Assembly (NCBI GenBank): GCA_945787525.1 | Contig: CALZJC010000018.1 | Coordinates: 1 to 44,635, forward strand | From: Thermoanaerobaculia bacterium | GTDB lineage: Bacteria > Acidobacteriota > Thermoanaerobaculia > Multivoradales > JAHEKO01 | Reading direction: 5' to 3' | DNA length: 44,635 nucleotides | In this document: in pieces, positions 1,786-27,314 of the stretch | Layout: each line of letters opens with the position of its first letter | Numbering within the stretch: the stretch's first letter is position 1 | Notes under the pieces: model-generated | Databases searched by the model: none | What the model saw: only the letters and a program-made list of their open reading frames with translations | Told to the model about the DNA's origin: nothing | Made by a program: the position numbers and the translations under genes

Positions 1786-2442
1786 CTACTCGTCCGAGGT
1801 CACTTCGGCAAATACGCTCGCTGCCCACTCCCGGTCGATCTCCACCCAGCCGGTCTGGTCTTCCTCGCCCTGCGAAAGTGAATCGAGGAGTCTCTCGCCT
1901 GCCAACGACAGTGAAGCCCACGGCACACTGAGCCCTTGGCTCTCCTCGTTCACCAAGTGAGCGAACTGGACAGTCGTCTCCTCGTCGGATTCGTGGAGGC
2001 CGTCGTAGAGGAGTTCTCCTTCTTGGAAGGACGGCTCCTGGAGGCGGATCAAGAGCTTCGAGAGTTCGGTGACCCTATCGTCGAGTCCATCGTCGAAGAT
2101 CGAGATCTTCTCTATCAGCTCGTTGAAGCTCCGGACACGTCGCCTCATCAGGGAATCTGTGAAGACGCTCATCGGCCCGGACAGGAATGGGTCTTCGGGG
2201 ACGGGGTCGTCACCAGGCAGAAGCCAGATCATGAACTGCTGGTTCATGTCGTGGAAGAGCATCGGCCCGACCACTTCCGCCGTCTCGCCGCACTTCGAGC
2301 AGCAGAACGTCGTCAGTTCCCTGGAGAGGAGTTTCTCCTTGAGTTCAGGATCGAGTGAGACGTTCACGCTGTCGTAGTGCGTGAACGGCTGCTCGTGGCC
2401 GCAGCCGGGACAGGAGAGGTTGTCCTCAGAGAATCGGGTCAT
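1786..2442 (-). CDS. CpXC domain-containing protein
   Basis: CPGCG...SVNVSLDPELKEKLL...FCCSKCG...LFHD...ELIEKISIFDDGLDDR pattern typical of CpXC proteins. Confidence 0.8.
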   Translation of the reverse strand: MTRFSEDNLSCPGCGHEQPFTHYDSVNVSLDPELKEKLLSRELTTFCCSKCGETAEVVGPMLFHDMNQQFMIWLLPGDDPVPEDPFLSGPMSVFTDSLMRRRVRSFNELIEKISIFDDGLDDRVTELSKLLIRLQEPSFQEGELLYDGLHESDEETTVQFAHLVNEESQGLSVPWASLSLAGERLLDSLSQGEEDQTGWVEIDREWAASVFAEVTSDE

Positions 2443-2449
2443 GGCTCAG

Positions 2450-2788
2450 CTAGTCCTCGTGGAAGTTGGCGACCGCCTCGTTCTCGTCATCGAAGACCTC
2501 AGGGAACTCCACCTGTGCAACCGCTAAGATCTCCTTCAGCTCGCTGGGGAGGTGGACCACGCTGAGCGTCGCTCCGCGCTGGACGAGACCGCCATAGCAG
2601 GCGACCAACTCCCCGAGGAACAGGCTGTCCGAGGAAGTCACTCCCTGAAGATCCAGCAGGATCTTCTTGTCGCCCGAGTCGATCAATGTCGAGAACAGCT
2701 CGCGGAGCGCACCGGAGTTCGAGTCACCGACTCTGCCCCGAACATCGACAACTGTGACGCCTTGCCGTTTTCGTCTCGTTACCTTCAT
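2450..2788 (-). CDS. STAS-domain anti-sigma factor antagonist
   Basis: VTVVDVRGRV...ILLDLQGVTSSDS...EVFDDENEAVANF; 112 aa. Confidence 0.85.
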   Translation of the reverse strand: MKVTRRKRQGVTVVDVRGRVGDSNSGALRELFSTLIDSGDKKILLDLQGVTSSDSLFLGELVACYGGLVQRGATLSVVHLPSELKEILAVAQVEFPEVFDDENEAVANFHED

Positions 2789-2826
2789 CTCTCGGGCTGG
2801 CCTTCGGTCGGCTCTAGTATGAACCC

Positions 2827-3672
2827 ATGAGACTCGCCTGGGCGACAGATCTGCATCTCGATTCCGTCGAGCGATCCGACGTTGATCGGTTTTGCAGCGA
2901 TGTACTGGCGTCTGATGTGGCCGGACTGCTCCTTGGAGGCGACATCTCTCAGGCGCGGGACCTGGTCCACTGGCTGGAGTTCTTGGATTCTCAGCTTGAG
3001 CTTCCGATCTACTTCGTTCTCGGGAACCACGACTACTACGGCAGCGACATCTCGGCCGTCCGGTGTCGGGTGGCTGGTCTAGCGTCGCCGACGCTCCTTT
3101 GGCTCCCTTCGACTGGCTGCCTCACGCTGACCGAGAACGTCGTCCTGGTCGGGCACGGAGGGTGGGGAGACTGCCGCATCGGCGATACCGACAACTTCGA
3201 GATCTTGACCGACTACCTTGCGATCAGAGATCTCAGCGAGACGGTTGAGCGCCAGGATCTGCTCACCGGTTTCTCGGTCAGGGCTCCGCTCCGGCAGAGG
3301 TTGGCGTCACTCGGGGATGATGCTGCGGGTACGTTGCGGCCCCATCTGCTCGAAGCGGCTCAACCCGGCAAGACCGTGTTGGTCCTGACGCATGTGCCCC
3401 CTTATCGAGAGTCCTGCTGGCACCGGGGAAGGATTTCGGATGAGACTTGGCTTCCTGGCTTCACTTGCAGGGCTGTAGGTGATCTCCTGACGGAGGTGGC
3501 CGCCGAGATCCCGGAGTCGAAGTTCACGGTGCTCTGCGGCCACTCGCACGGGACCGGCTACGTGCGGATGCAGGACAACCTGGAGGTCTACACGGCGGAG
3601 GCAGAGTACGGGCGCGTCTTCTTCCGGATCGTGGAGTTGATTGGTCGAGAGGTGGCCCTCAGAGCCCCGTGA
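2827..3672 (+). CDS. Calcineurin-like metallophosphoesterase
   Basis: DLH, GGDI, GNHD, THVPP and GHSH motifs. Confidence 0.9.
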   Translation: MRLAWATDLHLDSVERSDVDRFCSDVLASDVAGLLLGGDISQARDLVHWLEFLDSQLELPIYFVLGNHDYYGSDISAVRCRVAGLASPTLLWLPSTGCLTLTENVVLVGHGGWGDCRIGDTDNFEILTDYLAIRDLSETVERQDLLTGFSVRAPLRQRLASLGDDAAGTLRPHLLEAAQPGKTVLVLTHVPPYRESCWHRGRISDETWLPGFTCRAVGDLLTEVAAEIPESKFTVLCGHSHGTGYVRMQDNLEVYTAEAEYGRVFFRIVELIGREVALRAP

Positions 3673-3711
3673 CAAGCGCCGGATCGAGGTTGTCTGTCAC
3701 CCGGTCAGCTC

Positions 3712-4677
3712 CTAATCAAGGCCGTCGCCGCTCAGAAAATACAGGCTCCCGGACTTCCGGAGTTCTCCATCAGTGCAAGCTCGCTCGAAGGCCGCCAGTA
3801 CATCATCTTCTGATTCAAACCCGTACTCGGACAGCCGACCCCGGACAAACTGTGTCAGAAAGCCGGGATCTATCCCATCGATCTCGCCGTTGTCTCCGAA
3901 ATCGAAGTCGACCCGGCTCTGAGGACCTTCGACGAGGCAGCCGTACCCATGCTTCATGTATCGCCTCCCGTCCGGGAGCCAACCCGACTGCGGAGAGCAC
4001 GAAAACAGGGCCGCCCACTCGATGTTGCTTGTGGGGCGGAGAACGCCAGCGACTTCGAGAAGCCGGACAGCTTCAGCTACCGCCCGTCGATAGTCTGCGA
4101 TCAACCGTTGAAATCCAGCGTCCATCTCTAGTGGTCCGACGCCGCCGGATCGAGATTGCCTGTCACCAGTCGGTTTGTGGAGAGCTTCTAGAGCTTCCTC
4201 GCGGCTGTCGTAGAACCTCATCAAGGGGCCGACAGAATGGGGGAGTACAGAAAGCGGAGGTAGCTTCAGGACCCCGACAATCGCTGCTTCTCGGTGCCTA
4301 GCCTCGACGACTGCCTGCGCCGGATCACCCAACGCTTCTGAGTCGAAGTGAGTCTCTTGACTGAGGTCTAGGACGATGAGAGGAGCCTCATCGTTCGAGA
4401 CAGGAGGCGGAGGTGGAGGTAGCCTCAGGACCCCGACAATCGCTGCTTCGCGGTGCCTAGCCTCGACGACAGCCTGCGCCAGGTCGCCCAACGCTGCTAA
4501 GTCGAAGTGAGTCGCTTGACGGAGGTCTACGACGATGCGACGAGCCCCATCGTTCAAGACCCCCGTCACGGAGTCCTCAATGGAGGCGGGCGACTGGTGG
4601 GAGAGATCCCCACTGACGTTAATGACCACCACGTCATCGAGGTGCTCGATTCGGATTGTTGCTGTCTGTCGGCTCAT
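3712..4677 (-). CDS. STAS-like protein with internal duplication, fused to a DUF6896-like C-terminal domain
   Basis: N-terminus has VVVINVSGDL...IVVDL...FYDSREEAL (STAS-like); C-terminus has KHGYGC...VDFDFGDNGEIDG (recalled as DUF6896). Start chosen at ATG 4677. Confidence 0.6.
   Translation of the reverse strand: MSRQTATIRIEHLDDVVVINVSGDLSHQSPASIEDSVTGVLNDGARRIVVDLRQATHFDLAALGDLAQAVVEARHREAAIVGVLRLPPPPPPVSNDEAPLIVLDLSQETHFDSEALGDPAQAVVEARHREAAIVGVLKLPPLSVLPHSVGPLMRFYDSREEALEALHKPTGDRQSRSGGVGPLEMDAGFQRLIADYRRAVAEAVRLLEVAGVLRPTSNIEWAALFSCSPQSGWLPDGRRYMKHGYGCLVEGPQSRVDFDFGDNGEIDGIDPGFLTQFVRGRLSEYGFESEDDVLAAFERACTDGELRKSGSLYFLSGDGLD
4256..4560. repeat. Intragenic direct repeat, ~146 bp x2, period 159 bp
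   Basis: 4256-4401 aligns with 4415-4560 (e.g. CAGGACCCCGACAATCGCTGCTTC occurs in both); the protein repeats AQAVVEARHREAAIVGVL. Confidence 0.95.
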
Positions 4678-4876
4678 CGGAGCCTGAGACGAGTGTAACG
4701 CCCCGCGTTCCCGAGTGACCACAAGGGCATGGACCCCGATCTCTACCGGCCCCGCTTCCTCCTCGCCGCCCTGCGGAAGATCCACGCCCCGCCCGCCACC
4801 GAGAGGCGGCTGCTGGCCGCGTTCAGGAGGCGGTGACGGAATGCAATGCGGTGACAGGGTGACGGAATGACGGAAT

Positions 4877-5057
4877 GCGGTGACAGGCTACTCATTGAGG
4901 CCGAGGTTTGCGGCCCGTGGTATCAAACTGGGGAGCACGTCAGCGCACCGCGCTGCGTCACGCGGCACCCCTGGAATGACGACTCGGCAAAGCGAGCCAT
5001 CGTTTGGATGGACGGAAACGGACGTCGGCTCTTGGGTAATGAGTAGCCTGTCACCGC
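4877..5057. mobile_element. 181-bp non-autonomous element with 20-bp TIRs (copy 1), Y1/RAYT transposase-derived
   Basis: GCGGTGACAGGCTACTCATT (4877-4896) and its exact reverse complement (5038-5057). The minus-strand interior reads MARFA(R)VVIPGVP//VTQRG from ATG at 5000. Confidence 0.85.
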
Positions 5058-5394
5058 TGTCCCGCCCAGCGTTTCGTCTTGCCGCCGGTCTGCCGTAGCG
5101 CGCCGACCCCGGCGACCGGCGCAATTGGCGGCGGCAGAGCCAGCGCCGCACTGGCTCGACTCCGCGCCGGCGACGCAGGCGGAGACGTGTGCGCACTGGG
5201 GTAGCCCGCCGCAGGGGTCTCAGATGGAGCCAGAGCGGGTGGTGGCGGGATGGCTTCCCGGATGGGCTAGAATTCGGGCCAGTTAGCGCAAAAAGGAGGT
5301 CATCGTGCGGGGCAGAGGGGCCGGTCCGCTTGTTCTTGGTTTCGTTCTCGCCGGACACGTTGCTACGCAGAGGTCGGTAGACGGCGGTTAGTCG

Positions 5395-6351
5395 ATGGCT
5401 CCCTCGCGTCTCCTCGTCTCGGTACTCCTGCTGGGTGGGCTGCTCTTGCCGCAGGAAGCGGAGCTCGACGGCTTCAGATTACTGGTTGAAGCGGCGCGGC
5501 TGCTGGGCGACGCAGGCCTCGGCGGGCCGATCTGGCTCGACCCCGAGGGCAACCCGTTGCCGTTCGTCACCGACGCGGAAGTGGTCGACTTCCTGGCCAC
5601 CGCACGGGTGATCGACAGGCGGGAAATCGGGCACGGGATCACCAACCCCGAGCAGCTGCTCTTGGAGCGCGACGGCACTCGCGCCCATGCGGTCTTCCAC
5701 GACGTCAACGTCCACAAGACGCGGCAGCAACTGGACGGCCAGCTGGTGATGTTCTTCCGTGACAGCTACACCAATAACGTGGCCGCCTATGAGCTGAGCC
5801 GGCTGCTGGGGATCACCAACGTGCCACCGGCAGTGGTCCGAAAGGTCGGCTCCAACAAAGGCTCGGTCCAGATGTGGCTCGAGCAAGCGATCGAGGAGGT
5901 CGAACGCCGCCAGCGAGGTATCAATCCGCCGGGGACCTGGCGTCTGGCGGGGGCGGACATGTGGGTCTTCGACAACCTGATCAACAACATCGATCGCACT
6001 CAGGAGAACTTCGTCTACGATTCGCAGTGGAACCTCTGGTACATCGACCACACCCGAGCCTTCGGCCGCGGGCGCCGGCTTCCCAGCCCTGAGCGTGTGA
6101 AGCGCTGCTCGCGCCGCCTCTGGCAGGCGTTACGAGAACTGGACGAAGCCGAGGTGCGGAGGGTGCTGCAGCCCTATCTGGGCACCTACGAGATCGCCGG
6201 CGTCCTGCATCGGCACCAGCGGCTGCTCACGCTGATCGAAGAGAGGATCGCCCAGCGGGGAGAGGAGCGGGTTCTGTTCAGCTATCGGGACCCCCGGCCG
6301 CCCGTAGTCGTGCAGACCGAGAACGTGGATATCCCGGCGCCGCCGCCTTAG
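5395..6351 (+). CDS. Exported atypical kinase-like protein (PI3/4K-, HipA- or Fam20-like motifs)
   Basis: Signal-peptide-like N-terminus; AAYELSRLLGITNVPP, GSVQMWLE, FDNLINNIDR, WYIDHTRAF. Confidence 0.65.
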   Translation: MAPSRLLVSVLLLGGLLLPQEAELDGFRLLVEAARLLGDAGLGGPIWLDPEGNPLPFVTDAEVVDFLATARVIDRREIGHGITNPEQLLLERDGTRAHAVFHDVNVHKTRQQLDGQLVMFFRDSYTNNVAAYELSRLLGITNVPPAVVRKVGSNKGSVQMWLEQAIEEVERRQRGINPPGTWRLAGADMWVFDNLINNIDRTQENFVYDSQWNLWYIDHTRAFGRGRRLPSPERVKRCSRRLWQALRELDEAEVRRVLQPYLGTYEIAGVLHRHQRLLTLIEERIAQRGEERVLFSYRDPRPPVVVQTENVDIPAPPP

Positions 6352-6463
6352 CTAAACCGGCTGCGGGTTCTACTCGCTGCCGTGCGCGAGCCGACCCCAA
6401 CGCCAGAATCCGACTGGCAGACACTGGCCGAGTTCAAGCGGCCGTGACCGAGGTTTGCGGAAT

Positions 6464-6645
6464 GCGGTGACAGGCTACTCATTGGGGCCGAGGTTTGCAG
6501 CCCGTGGTGTCAAACTGAGGAGCACGTCAGGGCACCGCGCTGCGTCACGCGGCACCCCTGGAACGACGAGTCGGGCAAAGCGAGTCGTCGTTTGGATGGA
6601 CGGAAACGGTCGTCGGCTCTTGGCTAATGAGTAGCCTGTCACCGC
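6464..6645. mobile_element. 182-bp TIR element (copy 2), same orientation as copy 1
   Basis: Identical 20-bp TIRs (6464-6483, 6626-6645); interior near-identical to copy 1. Confidence 0.85.
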
Positions 6646-7005
6646 TGTCAGCGCAGGTGAATCCTGCAAACCAGATGGTCGCGGGCTGGTCACACACAAG
6701 GGGCAATCGAGGCGGGAACACCCTGGCGGGGAGTTCACATCTTTGCCTGCCGAGGCGGTTGATCAGTGACAGCCATGACAGTCGAACAGGCTACTCGCCA
6801 GCTCGATGCATGGTGTTCCGAGAGCCAGGGAACCAGACCACTCGAGCTGGATCCCGGACTGAGGCTCACAACAGAACGGGGTTGGACCATGAGCCACGGG
6901 GCACCTGGCCACGGGAGGTCCGGGCTATCCGAGATCTCGACTGATATGGGCGACTTATCGGACTTGATACCTCACCTGGCTTGGCGAGCCGGGGCCGCCC
7001 GGGGC

Positions 7006-7329
7006 CTAGCGAATCCGTAAGTGGGCGTCGTTTGCGCCGCGGGGCACAGGAATGGCTTTAACGCGACGCCCGCTGCGGGTCCACCACGCTTTGACGATTC
7101 GGCCCCGGCCTCCGACCACCAGCCAGGCAAGGTGAACGTCATTGGCACCTGGCGGCGCTAGATTGGGACGGCCGATGTTCCTGCGATCTCGCGTGAACTG
7201 AAGGATCGCGCGCACGACAATCGGCTTCTTCGCCGGCTTCTTGGCAACCCTCTTCTGCGCGACCTTCTTCTTGGCGACCTTCTTCTTGGCGGTCTTCTTC
7301 TTGGTGGCTCGCTTCTTGGCTGCTGGCAT
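7006..7329 (-). CDS. Small basic protein: Lys/Ala-rich N-terminus plus a duplicated GANDxHL motif
   Basis: ATG at 7329 with GAAAGGGG RBS; MPAAKKRATKKKTAKKKVAKKKVAQKRVAKKPAKKP; PPGANDVHL and PRGANDAHL. Confidence 0.7.
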   Translation of the reverse strand: MPAAKKRATKKKTAKKKVAKKKVAQKRVAKKPAKKPIVVRAILQFTRDRRNIGRPNLAPPGANDVHLAWLVVGGRGRIVKAWWTRSGRRVKAIPVPRGANDAHLRIR

Positions 7330-7569
7330 TCGAGCACCCCTTTCGGTTTTGATCACGCAGTCGCTCTCTGCGTAGTGCGCAATCAAGTATGTACTCACCA
7401 CACTATAGAGCTTCGACATGCAGGACGCCATGCGCGGCTGGCCGGGCTGTAGGTGCATCTGGCCTCCTCGATGTCGAAGCCCACCTGACCGGCGAGGTCG
7501 ATCTGCGGTTCAAAGCGGACTTCTTCCCACTCAAGCGTTTCGCCGACGCCAGCGCGCAAGCGGGGCCGA

Positions 7570-7659
7570 CAAGGTCCCACCCCAACAAGGTCCCACCCTC
7601 AAGAAGGTTCCACCCGAGTACCCCCAAGAAGGTTCCAAGAAAGGTCCCACCCGAGTACC
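7570..7659. repeat. Irregular tandem array of AAGGTYCC-core fragments
   Basis: Cores at 7571, 7587, 7604, 7629 and 7641; longest unit CAAGAAGGTYCCACCCGAGTACC. Confidence 0.85.
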
Positions 7660-7698
7660 GGAGCAGTCGGCTCGGCGAGTCTGGAATGCGGTTGAAAT

Positions 7699-7859
7699 GC
7701 GGTGACGGGCTAGTCATTGGGGCCGAGGTTTGCGGTCCGCGGCATCAAACTGGAATGCGGTGACAGGCTACTCATTGGGGCCAAGGTTTGCAGCCCGCGG
7801 TGTCAAACTGGGGAGCACGTCAGGGCACCGCGCTGCGTCACGCGGTACCCCTGGAACGA
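7699..7859. mobile_element. Truncated tandem copies of the TIR element (copy 3)
   Basis: A degenerate left end (7699-7752) is followed 58 bp later by a perfect left end (7757-7776) and interior sequence to ~7859; no right TIR. Confidence 0.8.
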
Positions 7860-8007
7860 GGACCCCATGCGGCCATTTCAACCCTTCCTGCCTGACCCAG
7901 CCACCTAATCCATCCAGGCCGACCCAGACCCTTACCCGGCCAACTTAGGTCGTTTCAACTGGCGTCTTGCCCTGAAACGGCGGCAAGGCGGCGTGTTGAG
8001 GGGCCAG

Positions 8008-26623: not shown

Positions 26624-27301
26624 ATGCCGAGAGAGCATCGAATGGCCGCCGGCCGGTCGTCCGTATCGCTGGTCCTGGGCTTCACGGCGCTGGTGCTCGG
26701 TTCGGCCAGCGCTGGCGGCGACGAGCCGCAGACGGCCGCACCGCCGCCGTCATCGCTGGTGCGGGCCGCCGTCGGAATCGAGCACCGCGATGCGGGGCAT
26801 CTCCGGCCCCAGGAGCGGCGGCCGAATCCGCGGTTCACCGGCAACGGCGACGGTACGGTGACGGACAACCTGACGGGCCTGATCTGGCTGCAGGACGCGA
26901 GCTGCGCCACCCTGCCGCGAACGGATGACGCTGGCAGGGCGTTCGGGGCGATAGCGGTTTCGGCCGCCCTCGACCTGGCCGATCCCGAGTGCGGTCTCTC
27001 CGACGGTTCTCAGGCCGGGGATTGGCGCCTGCCGAGCCGCTTCGAGCTGGAGAGCCTGCTGGATCTGGAGTTCCACGACCCGGCGCTGTCGAATGCGGCG
27101 GGCACGGCGAAGTGGAGTGCCGGCGACCCGTTCTCCGGCGTCGAGTCGTCCTGCTACTGGTCGTCGGTTGCCCTGGCCAGCGACCCCACCTACGTCTGGT
27201 GCGTCGACCTCCTCGACGGCCTGGTCTTCTACGTCTACGAGGTCCACTACTACTACGTCTGGCCGGTTCGGGAAACGCGGGAAATGCAGGAAATGCAGTG
27301 A
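26624..27301 (+). CDS. DUF1566 (Lcl C-terminal-like) domain protein
   Basis: RFTGNGDGTVTDNLTGLIW, DWRLPSRFELESL, YWSS, YVWPVR. Confidence 0.9.
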   Translation: MPREHRMAAGRSSVSLVLGFTALVLGSASAGGDEPQTAAPPPSSLVRAAVGIEHRDAGHLRPQERRPNPRFTGNGDGTVTDNLTGLIWLQDASCATLPRTDDAGRAFGAIAVSAALDLADPECGLSDGSQAGDWRLPSRFELESLLDLEFHDPALSNAAGTAKWSAGDPFSGVESSCYWSSVALASDPTYVWCVDLLDGLVFYVYEVHYYYVWPVRETREMQEMQ

Positions 27302-27314
27302 CAGGCTACTCATT
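27271..27314. repeat. Solo end of the TIR element with GGAAATGCA stutters
   Basis: GCAGTGACAGGCTACTCATT (27295-27314, 19/20 match to the TIR) preceded by GGAAACGCG GGAAATGCA GGAAAT. Confidence 0.8.

Follow-up and report, generated by a model that had tools for sequence, protein, structure and literature searches.

Gutted shells of a TIRtron, bearing an IS3-family scar and copied as a unit, in a Thermoanaerobaculia genome

What kind of element consists of two inverted repeats and scraps of a gene, and how could it multiply once that gene had been destroyed? The question is raised by contig CALZJC010000018.1 of the Thermoanaerobaculia bacterium assembly GCA_945787525.1 (Acidobacteriota), whose positions 1 to 44,635 constitute the whole stretch of DNA analyzed here (the window) and carry several copies of a 181/182-bp element enclosed by perfect 20-bp inverted repeats. 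The source assembly (G000) is a fragmented metagenome-assembled genome (MAG) of 550 contigs and 4.43 Mb, 89% complete, with a G+C content of 69% (mean, 0.689). An earlier sequence-only reading of the window had interpreted the elements as non-autonomous derivatives of a Y1 transposase gene, made of its flanking repeats and its two tips and copied as a unit. We found an intact parent of these elements in a genome of the same genus, a remnant of an IS3-family insertion sequence (IS) inside the copies, and junctions common to the copies that bear out their multiplication as a unit.

The exact 20-mer GCGGTGACAGGCTACTCATT occurs at window positions 4877(+), 5038(-), 6464(+), 6626(-), and 7757(+), with inexact forms at 7699(+) (two mismatches) and 27295(+) (one mismatch). 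At up to three mismatches, the window yielded seven matches, whereas 100 shuffles averaged 0.00, and the seven 20-mers detected assembly-wide all lie inside it. These make up two complete elements (c1, 4877-5057, and c2, 6464-6645, 93% identical to each other), one truncated copy (c3, 7757-7862, 95% identical to c2) that is cut off on its right side, ending short of the start codon and without a right repeat, one 55-nt left fragment (c3a, 7699-7753), which stands in tandem with c3 as a 58-nt unit, and one solo end. The two complete copies with perfect terminal repeats and the solo end at 27295 had been recognized in the sequence-only reading, as had truncated copies at 7699-7859; there are indeed two incomplete copies there, although their boundaries are those of c3a and c3 given here. 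The DNA intervening between c1, c2, and c3 is unrelated in sequence, and the copies are therefore not segmental duplications.

Assemblies in 550 contigs are open to repeat-induced chimeric joins, and contigs from public metagenome runs (contigs only, not assignable to this organism) cover the region in pieces. Even so, an assembly artefact is barely credible, as the copies differ by 5-8.5% and so are not collapsed or duplicated reads, contigs of run X1 match parts of the region, such as 4432-4606 and 6927-7287, with 0 other letters, and a contig of run X4 spans the right end of c2 into its flank (6532-6682, 0 differences).

The parent of the elements is preserved in the same-genus genome G081, where a 751-bp unit (G081:C4:643473-644223) consists of a single intact open reading frame (ORF) bounded by perfect inverted copies of the same 20-mer. 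An intact Y1 gene of this kind, beginning MARFARVVVPGVPHHVTQRG and lying between the same repeats, was what the sequence-only reading had pointed to. The predicted protein comprises 221 amino acids (aa; MARFARVVVPGVPHHVTQRG...GRKPKRE) and matches Pfam Y1_Tnp with 36.7 bits, above the cut-off of 23; its best NCBIfam match, REP_Tyr_transpos (NF047646; 72 bits, E 4.5e-20), lies below the curated equivalog cut-off of 80. The sole match in the PDB is E. coli TnpAREP (4ER8, E 3e-6), in an alignment that takes in HVHLI, the HUH motif, and YVLLNP, the tyrosine motif. The name TIRYT has been given to RAYT-like genes that lie between terminal inverted repeats (TIRs) rather than GTAG hairpins, and the name TIRtron to the units that they form (Di Nocera 2013, PMC3733652, in its passages on these genes). 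What had appeared in the sequence-only reading to be a poorly described hybrid thus has a parent of a kind already named, in those passages and in those of Quentin 2018.

On the minus strand, the alignment of c1 and c2 with the G081 unit covers its nt 1-122, which span the 5' repeat, a 37-nt leader, and codons 1 to ~21, at a DNA identity of 74-77% (E 5e-16 and 6e-12). Relative to G081, c1, c2, and c3 have all lost the same 5 bp within the PHH codons, a frameshifting deletion; c1 has an additional 1-bp deletion, and the ATG of c2 is lost (ACG ACT). The loss of the HH codons had been ascribed to all copies; it is shared by c1, c2, and c3, but is properly a 5-bp frameshift, and c3a ends before the site. 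Likewise, the Y1 similarity proposed for the interior is evident as a DNA match to the 5' end of the G081 gene, but not at the protein level: a profile of 80 family proteins found nothing significant among all 107,199 six-frame pieces of G000, and the N-terminal piece of the mini-element reached 6.1 bits (i-E 37). As far as the sequences go, the case for homology is carried by the DNA-level match, the protein hidden Markov model (HMM) alone being blind to such a remnant. An HUH motif and a catalytic Tyr were not found in the gene content of the window, where just ~21 frameshifted and ~6 tail codons are left, and the window element is a derivative of a TIRtron, not a member gene.

Between the gene start and the left repeat, the sequence-only reading had seen a short gap. 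This is not a gap, but the 28-nt end of an IS3-family element, a new feature overlooked in that reading. The left-interior 28-31 nt match many loci across the order at 87-100% identity, and in genome G101 the same motif terminates, on the right, an IS3-family element that is complete at 1278 bp (L011) and has perfect 13-nt inverted ends TGACGTGCTCCCC, TG...CA termini, and two ORFs with matches to HTH_Tnp_1 (orfA, E 1.6e-24) and rve/rve_3 (orfB, E 5.5e-29). In c1, positions 4915-4942 are identical to the last 28 nt of this IS (28/28), while c2 and c3 are 90% identical to its end over 31 nt. The scar is the terminal ...GCACGTCA of that element, abutting Y1 codon ~21, and in the window the terminal 28 nt of one end are all that is left of it. 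One other solo end of the same element was seen in the source assembly (G000:C194:99-126, 26/28 nt), with no transposase beside it. The same IS3-family end also lies ~70 nt from a 73-bp repeat doublet in another genome (L012, G083:C74, 1361-1530), which, taken with the insertion in the Y1 gene, hints that this IS may favor such loci; REPs (repetitive extragenic palindromes) are noted as possible IS targets in a background passage of Di Nocera 2013 (PMC3733652).

A small element with perfect 20-bp terminal inverted repeats and an IS3-family end inside could also be read as an ordinary miniature inverted-repeat transposable element (MITE) of a DDE transposon, moved for instance by an IS3-family transposase. 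This is very improbable, given that in relatives these repeats enclose a Y1 gene that is intact, that no target duplication is seen, and that the IS3 end is single, internal, and unrelated in sequence to the 20-mers, with no transposase of this element found in the G000 assembly by tblastn.

The remaining 16-18 nt, which adjoin the left repeat, encode RKPRPQ up to a stop whose TGA falls within the repeat, as intact relatives end in ...GRKPxxx-stop with the stop inside or adjoining theirs. Compared in register with the repeat, this tail matches that of G106 at 12-13 of 19 nt (null fraction 0.0004-0.0017) and those of G075 and G099 at 10-11 of 19 (null fraction 0.007-0.02), so that three of eight comparators fall below 0.025; G081 gives no tail match because of extra bases there. 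The (G)RKPRPQ-stop ending proposed in the sequence-only reading thus has modest support from the in-register match to G106. When the 48-nt left interior was aligned locally and freely to the 3' ends of genes, the score lacked significance, being reached by 137, 119, and 350 of 500 shuffles. Most of that stretch proved to be the IS end. The resulting anatomy is given in Table 1.

Table 1. Features of the element copies and solo repeat, in window coordinates
Feature	Position	Strand	Sequence or basis
Stuttered partial left ends, directly upstream of c1	4822..4876	+	GCGGTGAC / GGAATGC / AATGCGGTGACAGG / GTGAC / GGAATGAC / GGAAT
c1 terminal inverted repeat, gene 3' side	4877..4896	+	exact 20-mer; holds gene stop (TGA, minus strand)
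c1 probable last ~6 Y1 codons, RKPRPQ-stop	4897..4914	-	in register, 12/19 nt match G106 (null fraction 0.0014) and 11/19 match G075 and G099
c1 IS3-family right-end remnant, ending ...GCACGTCA	4915..4942	+	28/28 nt identical to IS positions 1251-1278 (1278-bp IS, L011)
c1 Y1 codons 1 to ~21, with common 5-bp and private 1-bp deletion	4943..5000	-	aligns to G081 unit nt 59-122
c1 5' untranslated leader of Y1 gene	5001..5037	-	aligns to G081 unit nt 21-58
c1 terminal inverted repeat, gene 5' side	5038..5057	-	exact 20-mer
c2 terminal inverted repeat, gene 3' side	6464..6483	+	exact 20-mer
c2 probable gene tail	6484..6501	-	in-register comparison with relatives
c2 IS3-family end remnant	6502..6529	+	90% identity over 31 nt (6499-6529) to IS end
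c2 Y1 codons 1 to ~21, with common 5-bp deletion, start mutated to ACG	6530..6588	-	alignment to G081 unit
c2 5' leader	6589..6625	-	alignment to G081 unit
c2 terminal inverted repeat, gene 5' side	6626..6645	-	exact 20-mer
c3a: repeat (2 mismatches), gene tail, inner 17 nt of IS remnant	7699..7753	+	58-nt tandem unit with c3
c3: repeat 7757-7776, tail 7777-7794, IS remnant 7795-7822, gene codons 7823-7862	7757..7862	+	same 5-bp deletion
Solo repeat, 1 mismatch, flanked by GGAAAT and TCGC as usual for the family	27295..27314	+	preceded by stuttered GGAAATGCAG

Copies c1, c2, and c3 all have the IS junction together with both the large and the 5-bp deletions, and c3a carries the tail and the inner IS scar. 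Common junctions mean that the chimera multiplied as a unit once its gene was already destroyed; an independent origin of the copies is not credible. Many independently truncated remnants do occur in relatives, and the three copies could accordingly be imagined as full-length genes that decayed separately in place. Recurrence of three idiosyncratic junctions in c1, c2, and c3 is not believable, leaving gene conversion between three old loci as the sole rescue, and we regard separate decay as close to refuted. Between c1 and c2, none of the 40 repeat positions differ, compared with 12 of the 142 interior positions (P about 0.03).

On balance, we judge the 181-bp elements to be dead, non-autonomous shells of a TIRtron (a RAYT-like Y1/HUH gene between two inverted repeats of ~20-26 nt), most likely copied by a cognate TIRYT supplied in trans. 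In the simplest history, an IS3-family element would have inserted into the Y1 gene after codon ~21, and a single deletion, starting 28 nt within the IS and reaching to some 16-18 nt short of the 3' repeat, would then have reduced the IS to its last 28 nt and the gene to its first ~21 and last ~6 codons. A 5-bp deletion would also have struck the PHH codons. The chimera thus formed, composed of a repeat, the tail, the IS scar, 21 codons, the leader, and a second repeat, would have kept both end repeats and been copied at least twice into nearby intergenic regions, with one partial duplication in tandem. The route of copying, which we only infer from the observed anatomy, the parent unit in the relative, and the common junctions, would most likely involve the cognate TIRYT acting in trans on the repeat pair, the repeats pairing into a 20-bp stem on one strand as proposed for REPINs and RAYTs, with copying that leaves no target duplication. 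The element is predicted to fold as a one-strand hairpin closed by a 20-bp stem (-58.7 kcal/mol, z -6.4), and no direct repeat indicative of a target-site duplication is visible at the flanks of c1 (CGGAAT on the left, TGTCCC on the right) or c2 (CGGAAT and TGTCAG).

Both the repeat and the enzyme family extend well beyond this genome. When c2 was compared with 300 genomes of the order, long matches were confined to the family, where the 20-mer (at up to two mismatches) was present in 27 of 45 genomes, including other genera in which the exact form recurs, and reached up to 37 occurrences per genome; a reversed control pattern gave one match in total. Across 66 distinct repeat contexts in relatives, the conserved repeat unit is longer than 20 nt, reading GGAAA[A/T] followed by GCGGTGACAGG[C/A]TACTCATT and then [T/C]CGC. 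Single units contain GTAG inside the repeat and fold weakly and inconsistently (mean -2.3 kcal/mol, same 66 contexts); a GCGG/YCGC foot is possible in many relatives and absent in the G000 minis. The repeats often form inverted doublets, those of 52-105 bp dominating in relatives, and inverted pairs in the loci examined measured 52, 71-75, 80, 81, 105, 150, 156, 181/182, 403/404, 504, 751, 771, and 850 bp. Internally deleted derivatives are represented among these relatives by 403/404-bp and 268-bp elements in G075, a 504-bp element in G099, and a 156-bp element in G100; the two 403/404-bp copies share the same two deletions and are 94.7% identical.

Homologues of the G081 protein were detected in 38 of the 45 family genomes (a tally that includes the unpublished G114), within an enzyme family large enough that 7865 of 8000 scored candidates reached E<=1e-10. 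Many of these genomes, which are 38 of the 44 other than G000, have them as numerous 300-400-aa open frames of 25-33% identity; G000 shows none. Among 121 stored family proteins, PGxPHH[VI]xQRG was found near the N-terminus of 68 and GR[KR]P near the C-terminus of 66. Of 13 homologue loci (L065-L077), six had the 20-mer (at up to five mismatches) on both sides and two on one side; the five with none all encode proteins at most 62% identical to that of G081. A stretch of genome G093 (G093:C1:1486718-1490468, L097 and L117) holds two whole units 3 kb apart, 98.8% identical, one of them frameshifted, with an extra 3'-end fragment beside them; in this pair the entire unit has recently been duplicated. 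The enzymes of G081 and G093 are 68% identical and their RpoB proteins 82% (RpoB of G000 and G081, 95%), and this single sequence comparison gives no sign of recent enzyme transfer.

Rather than by a transposase, the chimera may have spread locally, by slippage or template switching at hairpin repeats or by recombination or conversion of pre-existing doublets, an explanation that we consider possible but less probable. It would fit the confinement of all copies to 3 kb in the same orientation, the c3a-c3 pair, in which 58 nt are simply duplicated in tandem, with GG microhomology, the stuttered partial left ends upstream of c1 and the solo repeat, and the lack of a Y1 gene in the assembly. Short doublets with the same 20-mers in relatives and metagenome contigs make convertible sites plausible, and G075 and G093 also have similar elements in pairs, spaced 1.2-3 kb apart. 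Set against this, 20-26 nt of homology make a very short arm for recombination, slippage cannot account for copies separated by 1.3-1.6 kb of unrelated DNA, and repeats conserved more strictly than the interior agree with recognition by a protein. The stuttered ends consist of partial repeat outer ends (GGAAT/GGAAAT plus the first 3-14 nt) and lie at 4822-4876 and 27275-27294; separately, a 13-nt interior fragment (6448-6460) precedes c2.

Several observations weigh against copying of the shells by a TIRYT in trans. In the G000 assembly, incomplete and divided as it is (89%, 550 contigs), no Y1 gene was detected, with 0 matches to PF01797, 0 in a search with the G081 protein, and a best six-frame family-HMM domain at i-E 7. 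The copies differ by 5-8.5%, every copy lies within the same 3 kb with none elsewhere in the genome, the full chimera was not found among the 300 genomes of the order, and two mini-specific patterns each gave 0 matches to JGI metagenome contigs. Filled and empty sites could not be compared at the copies, as the adjoining genes are not syntenic in G080 and G081, where homologues of the 318-aa ORF between c1 and c2 (56-57% aa identity) have no common neighbors and no 20-mers within 1.5 kb. The G000 minis are without the inner YCGC at both ends and without the outer GGAAA at the right end, flanks found on most repeats of the family, and may thus be poor substrates. An excision joint was not seen in the public-run contigs; contigs that appear to skip from 4896 to 5038 or 6626 were rejected as excisions, being other short doublets in which the same 20-mers enclose 28-38 letters of different sequence. 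Finally, the gene-tail assignment, made on just 16-18 nt of sequence, is likely but not proven. Given the lack of an enzyme in the assembly and the divergence of the copies, we see the shells as probably fossils of past activity.

Pairs of repeat-bounded elements bracket other genes at three loci. In the window, c1 and c2 bracket the single 318-aa ORF. In G075, the two 403/404-bp copies (L121, G075:C158, 1443-3313) bracket a ParS/MbcA-type antitoxin and a RES toxin (Pfam E 9e-18 and 1e-29), and at another locus of that genome (L038) a single Rce1-like gene lies between two 75-bp doublets. As a tentative suggestion, TIRYTs may still be true transposases that move content between inverted repeats, with TIRtrons spawning their own MITEs and element pairs perhaps mobilizing host genes as composites; the 318-aa ORF, the ParS/RES pair, and the Rce1-like gene might then be candidate cargo.

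The window elements and the G081 unit resemble TIRtrons in that inverted repeats bound both and in that the repeat may overlap the gene 3' end. The TIR motif GGGGWSAS is found in most described TIRtrons, whose TIR families are moderately abundant and occur in dimers and clusters, and the acidobacterial TIRYT group is sharply defined, according to the corresponding passages of Di Nocera 2013 (PMC3733652). The repeat motif in the window, GGTGACAG, agrees with it at 7/8 positions, and GGGGACAG in G099 and gammaproteobacterial relatives at 8/8. Most TIRYTs belong to subclass 2.1, equivalent to RAYT Group 1 of Bertels 2017, within a class 2 marked by the signature Y---NP, and subclass 2.1 shows C-terminal helix-turn-helix (HTH) or Bac_DnaA_C similarity (Quentin 2018, PMC6006769, in its classification passages). 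The YVLLNP of the G081 protein fits this signature, and the unit probably belongs with subclass 2.1, although the ~80-aa C-terminal extension of the protein (P0001) had no Pfam match even at E<=10 and showed no HTH or Bac_DnaA_C similarity in that Pfam search. Where the window departs from TIRtrons is in consisting of gutted shells with an IS3 scar, themselves copied and without a gene; in the TIRYT passages of Di Nocera 2013 and Quentin 2018, figures and supplements apart, no description was found of a derivative with gene tips that was itself copied.

The likeness to REPIN-RAYT systems, as these are portrayed in passages of Nunvar 2010 (PMC2817692) and PMC3116915, lies in inverted repeats that fold with a variable spacer as a long hairpin, in a cognate Y1 gene flanked by the same inverted repeats, often at the stop codon, and in a repeat containing GTAG. 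REPINs have been proposed to derive from the flanks of an IS200-like ancestor, RAYTs being considered not self-moving (Bertels & Rainey 2011, PMC3116915, and a later preprint, in the parts concerned). Enzymes of RAYT type are usually described as single-copy, and the relevant passages of PMC3733652 and PMC6006769 do not show mobility for their TIR-flanked relatives. Here, in contrast, each repeat is at best a weak palindrome, copy number is low (7 in G000, at most 37 per genome), and the spacer is a recognizable remnant of the enzyme's own gene; and where such systems combine a vertically inherited enzyme, present once per genome, with many repeats, G000 shows 7 repeats without an enzyme gene, and G093 has two whole units. 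With MITEs the elements share terminal inverted repeats, small size, lack of coding capacity, and presence in several copies, but not a target-site duplication. MITEs and palindrome-associated transposable elements (PATEs) are small, noncoding, internally deleted derivatives of ISs, including IS200/IS605, that retain the ends of their parent and occur in multiple copies; the parent here differs in being a Y1 enzyme with true inverted ends.

The copies lie in a region (2000-8000 of the window) with a G+C content of 0.60-0.66, against the genome mean of 0.689, and a gene order unlike that of same-genus genomes, and which is probably accessory. No match to the element was found in Rfam at E<=1, a promoter and terminator scan returned nothing exceeding shuffles, and PADLOC and Pfam searches of the adjoining ORFs gave nothing bearing on the element. 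Nearby, a separate repeat family at 8333-8583 matches at least eight G081 loci at 72-89% identity. A lysine-rich 150-aa ORF on the minus strand (7006-7458) contains 15-bp tandem repeats (7237-7311) and matches HC2 (histone H1-like) with 27 bits, below the cut-off. In this stretch, the summed contig depth in metagenome runs is very high, up to 1829, probably as a result of low complexity and of sequence common to many organisms.

The evidence comes from a single fragmented MAG (G000), where the three to four copies lie close together and no enzyme has been seen. Within those limits, a repeat-bounded unit lost its gene in a datable manner, through an IS hit and a deletion, and yet multiplied, which is natural evidence that the repeat pair, not its content, defines the copied unit. 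If TIRtrons do spawn their own MITEs, the tips of the enzyme's own gene and an IS scar, carried along as cargo, would represent the step hypothesized for the birth of REPINs. The 181-bp mini-element and the G081 protein, as the candidate enzyme, offer a substrate and enzyme pair for a direct test.

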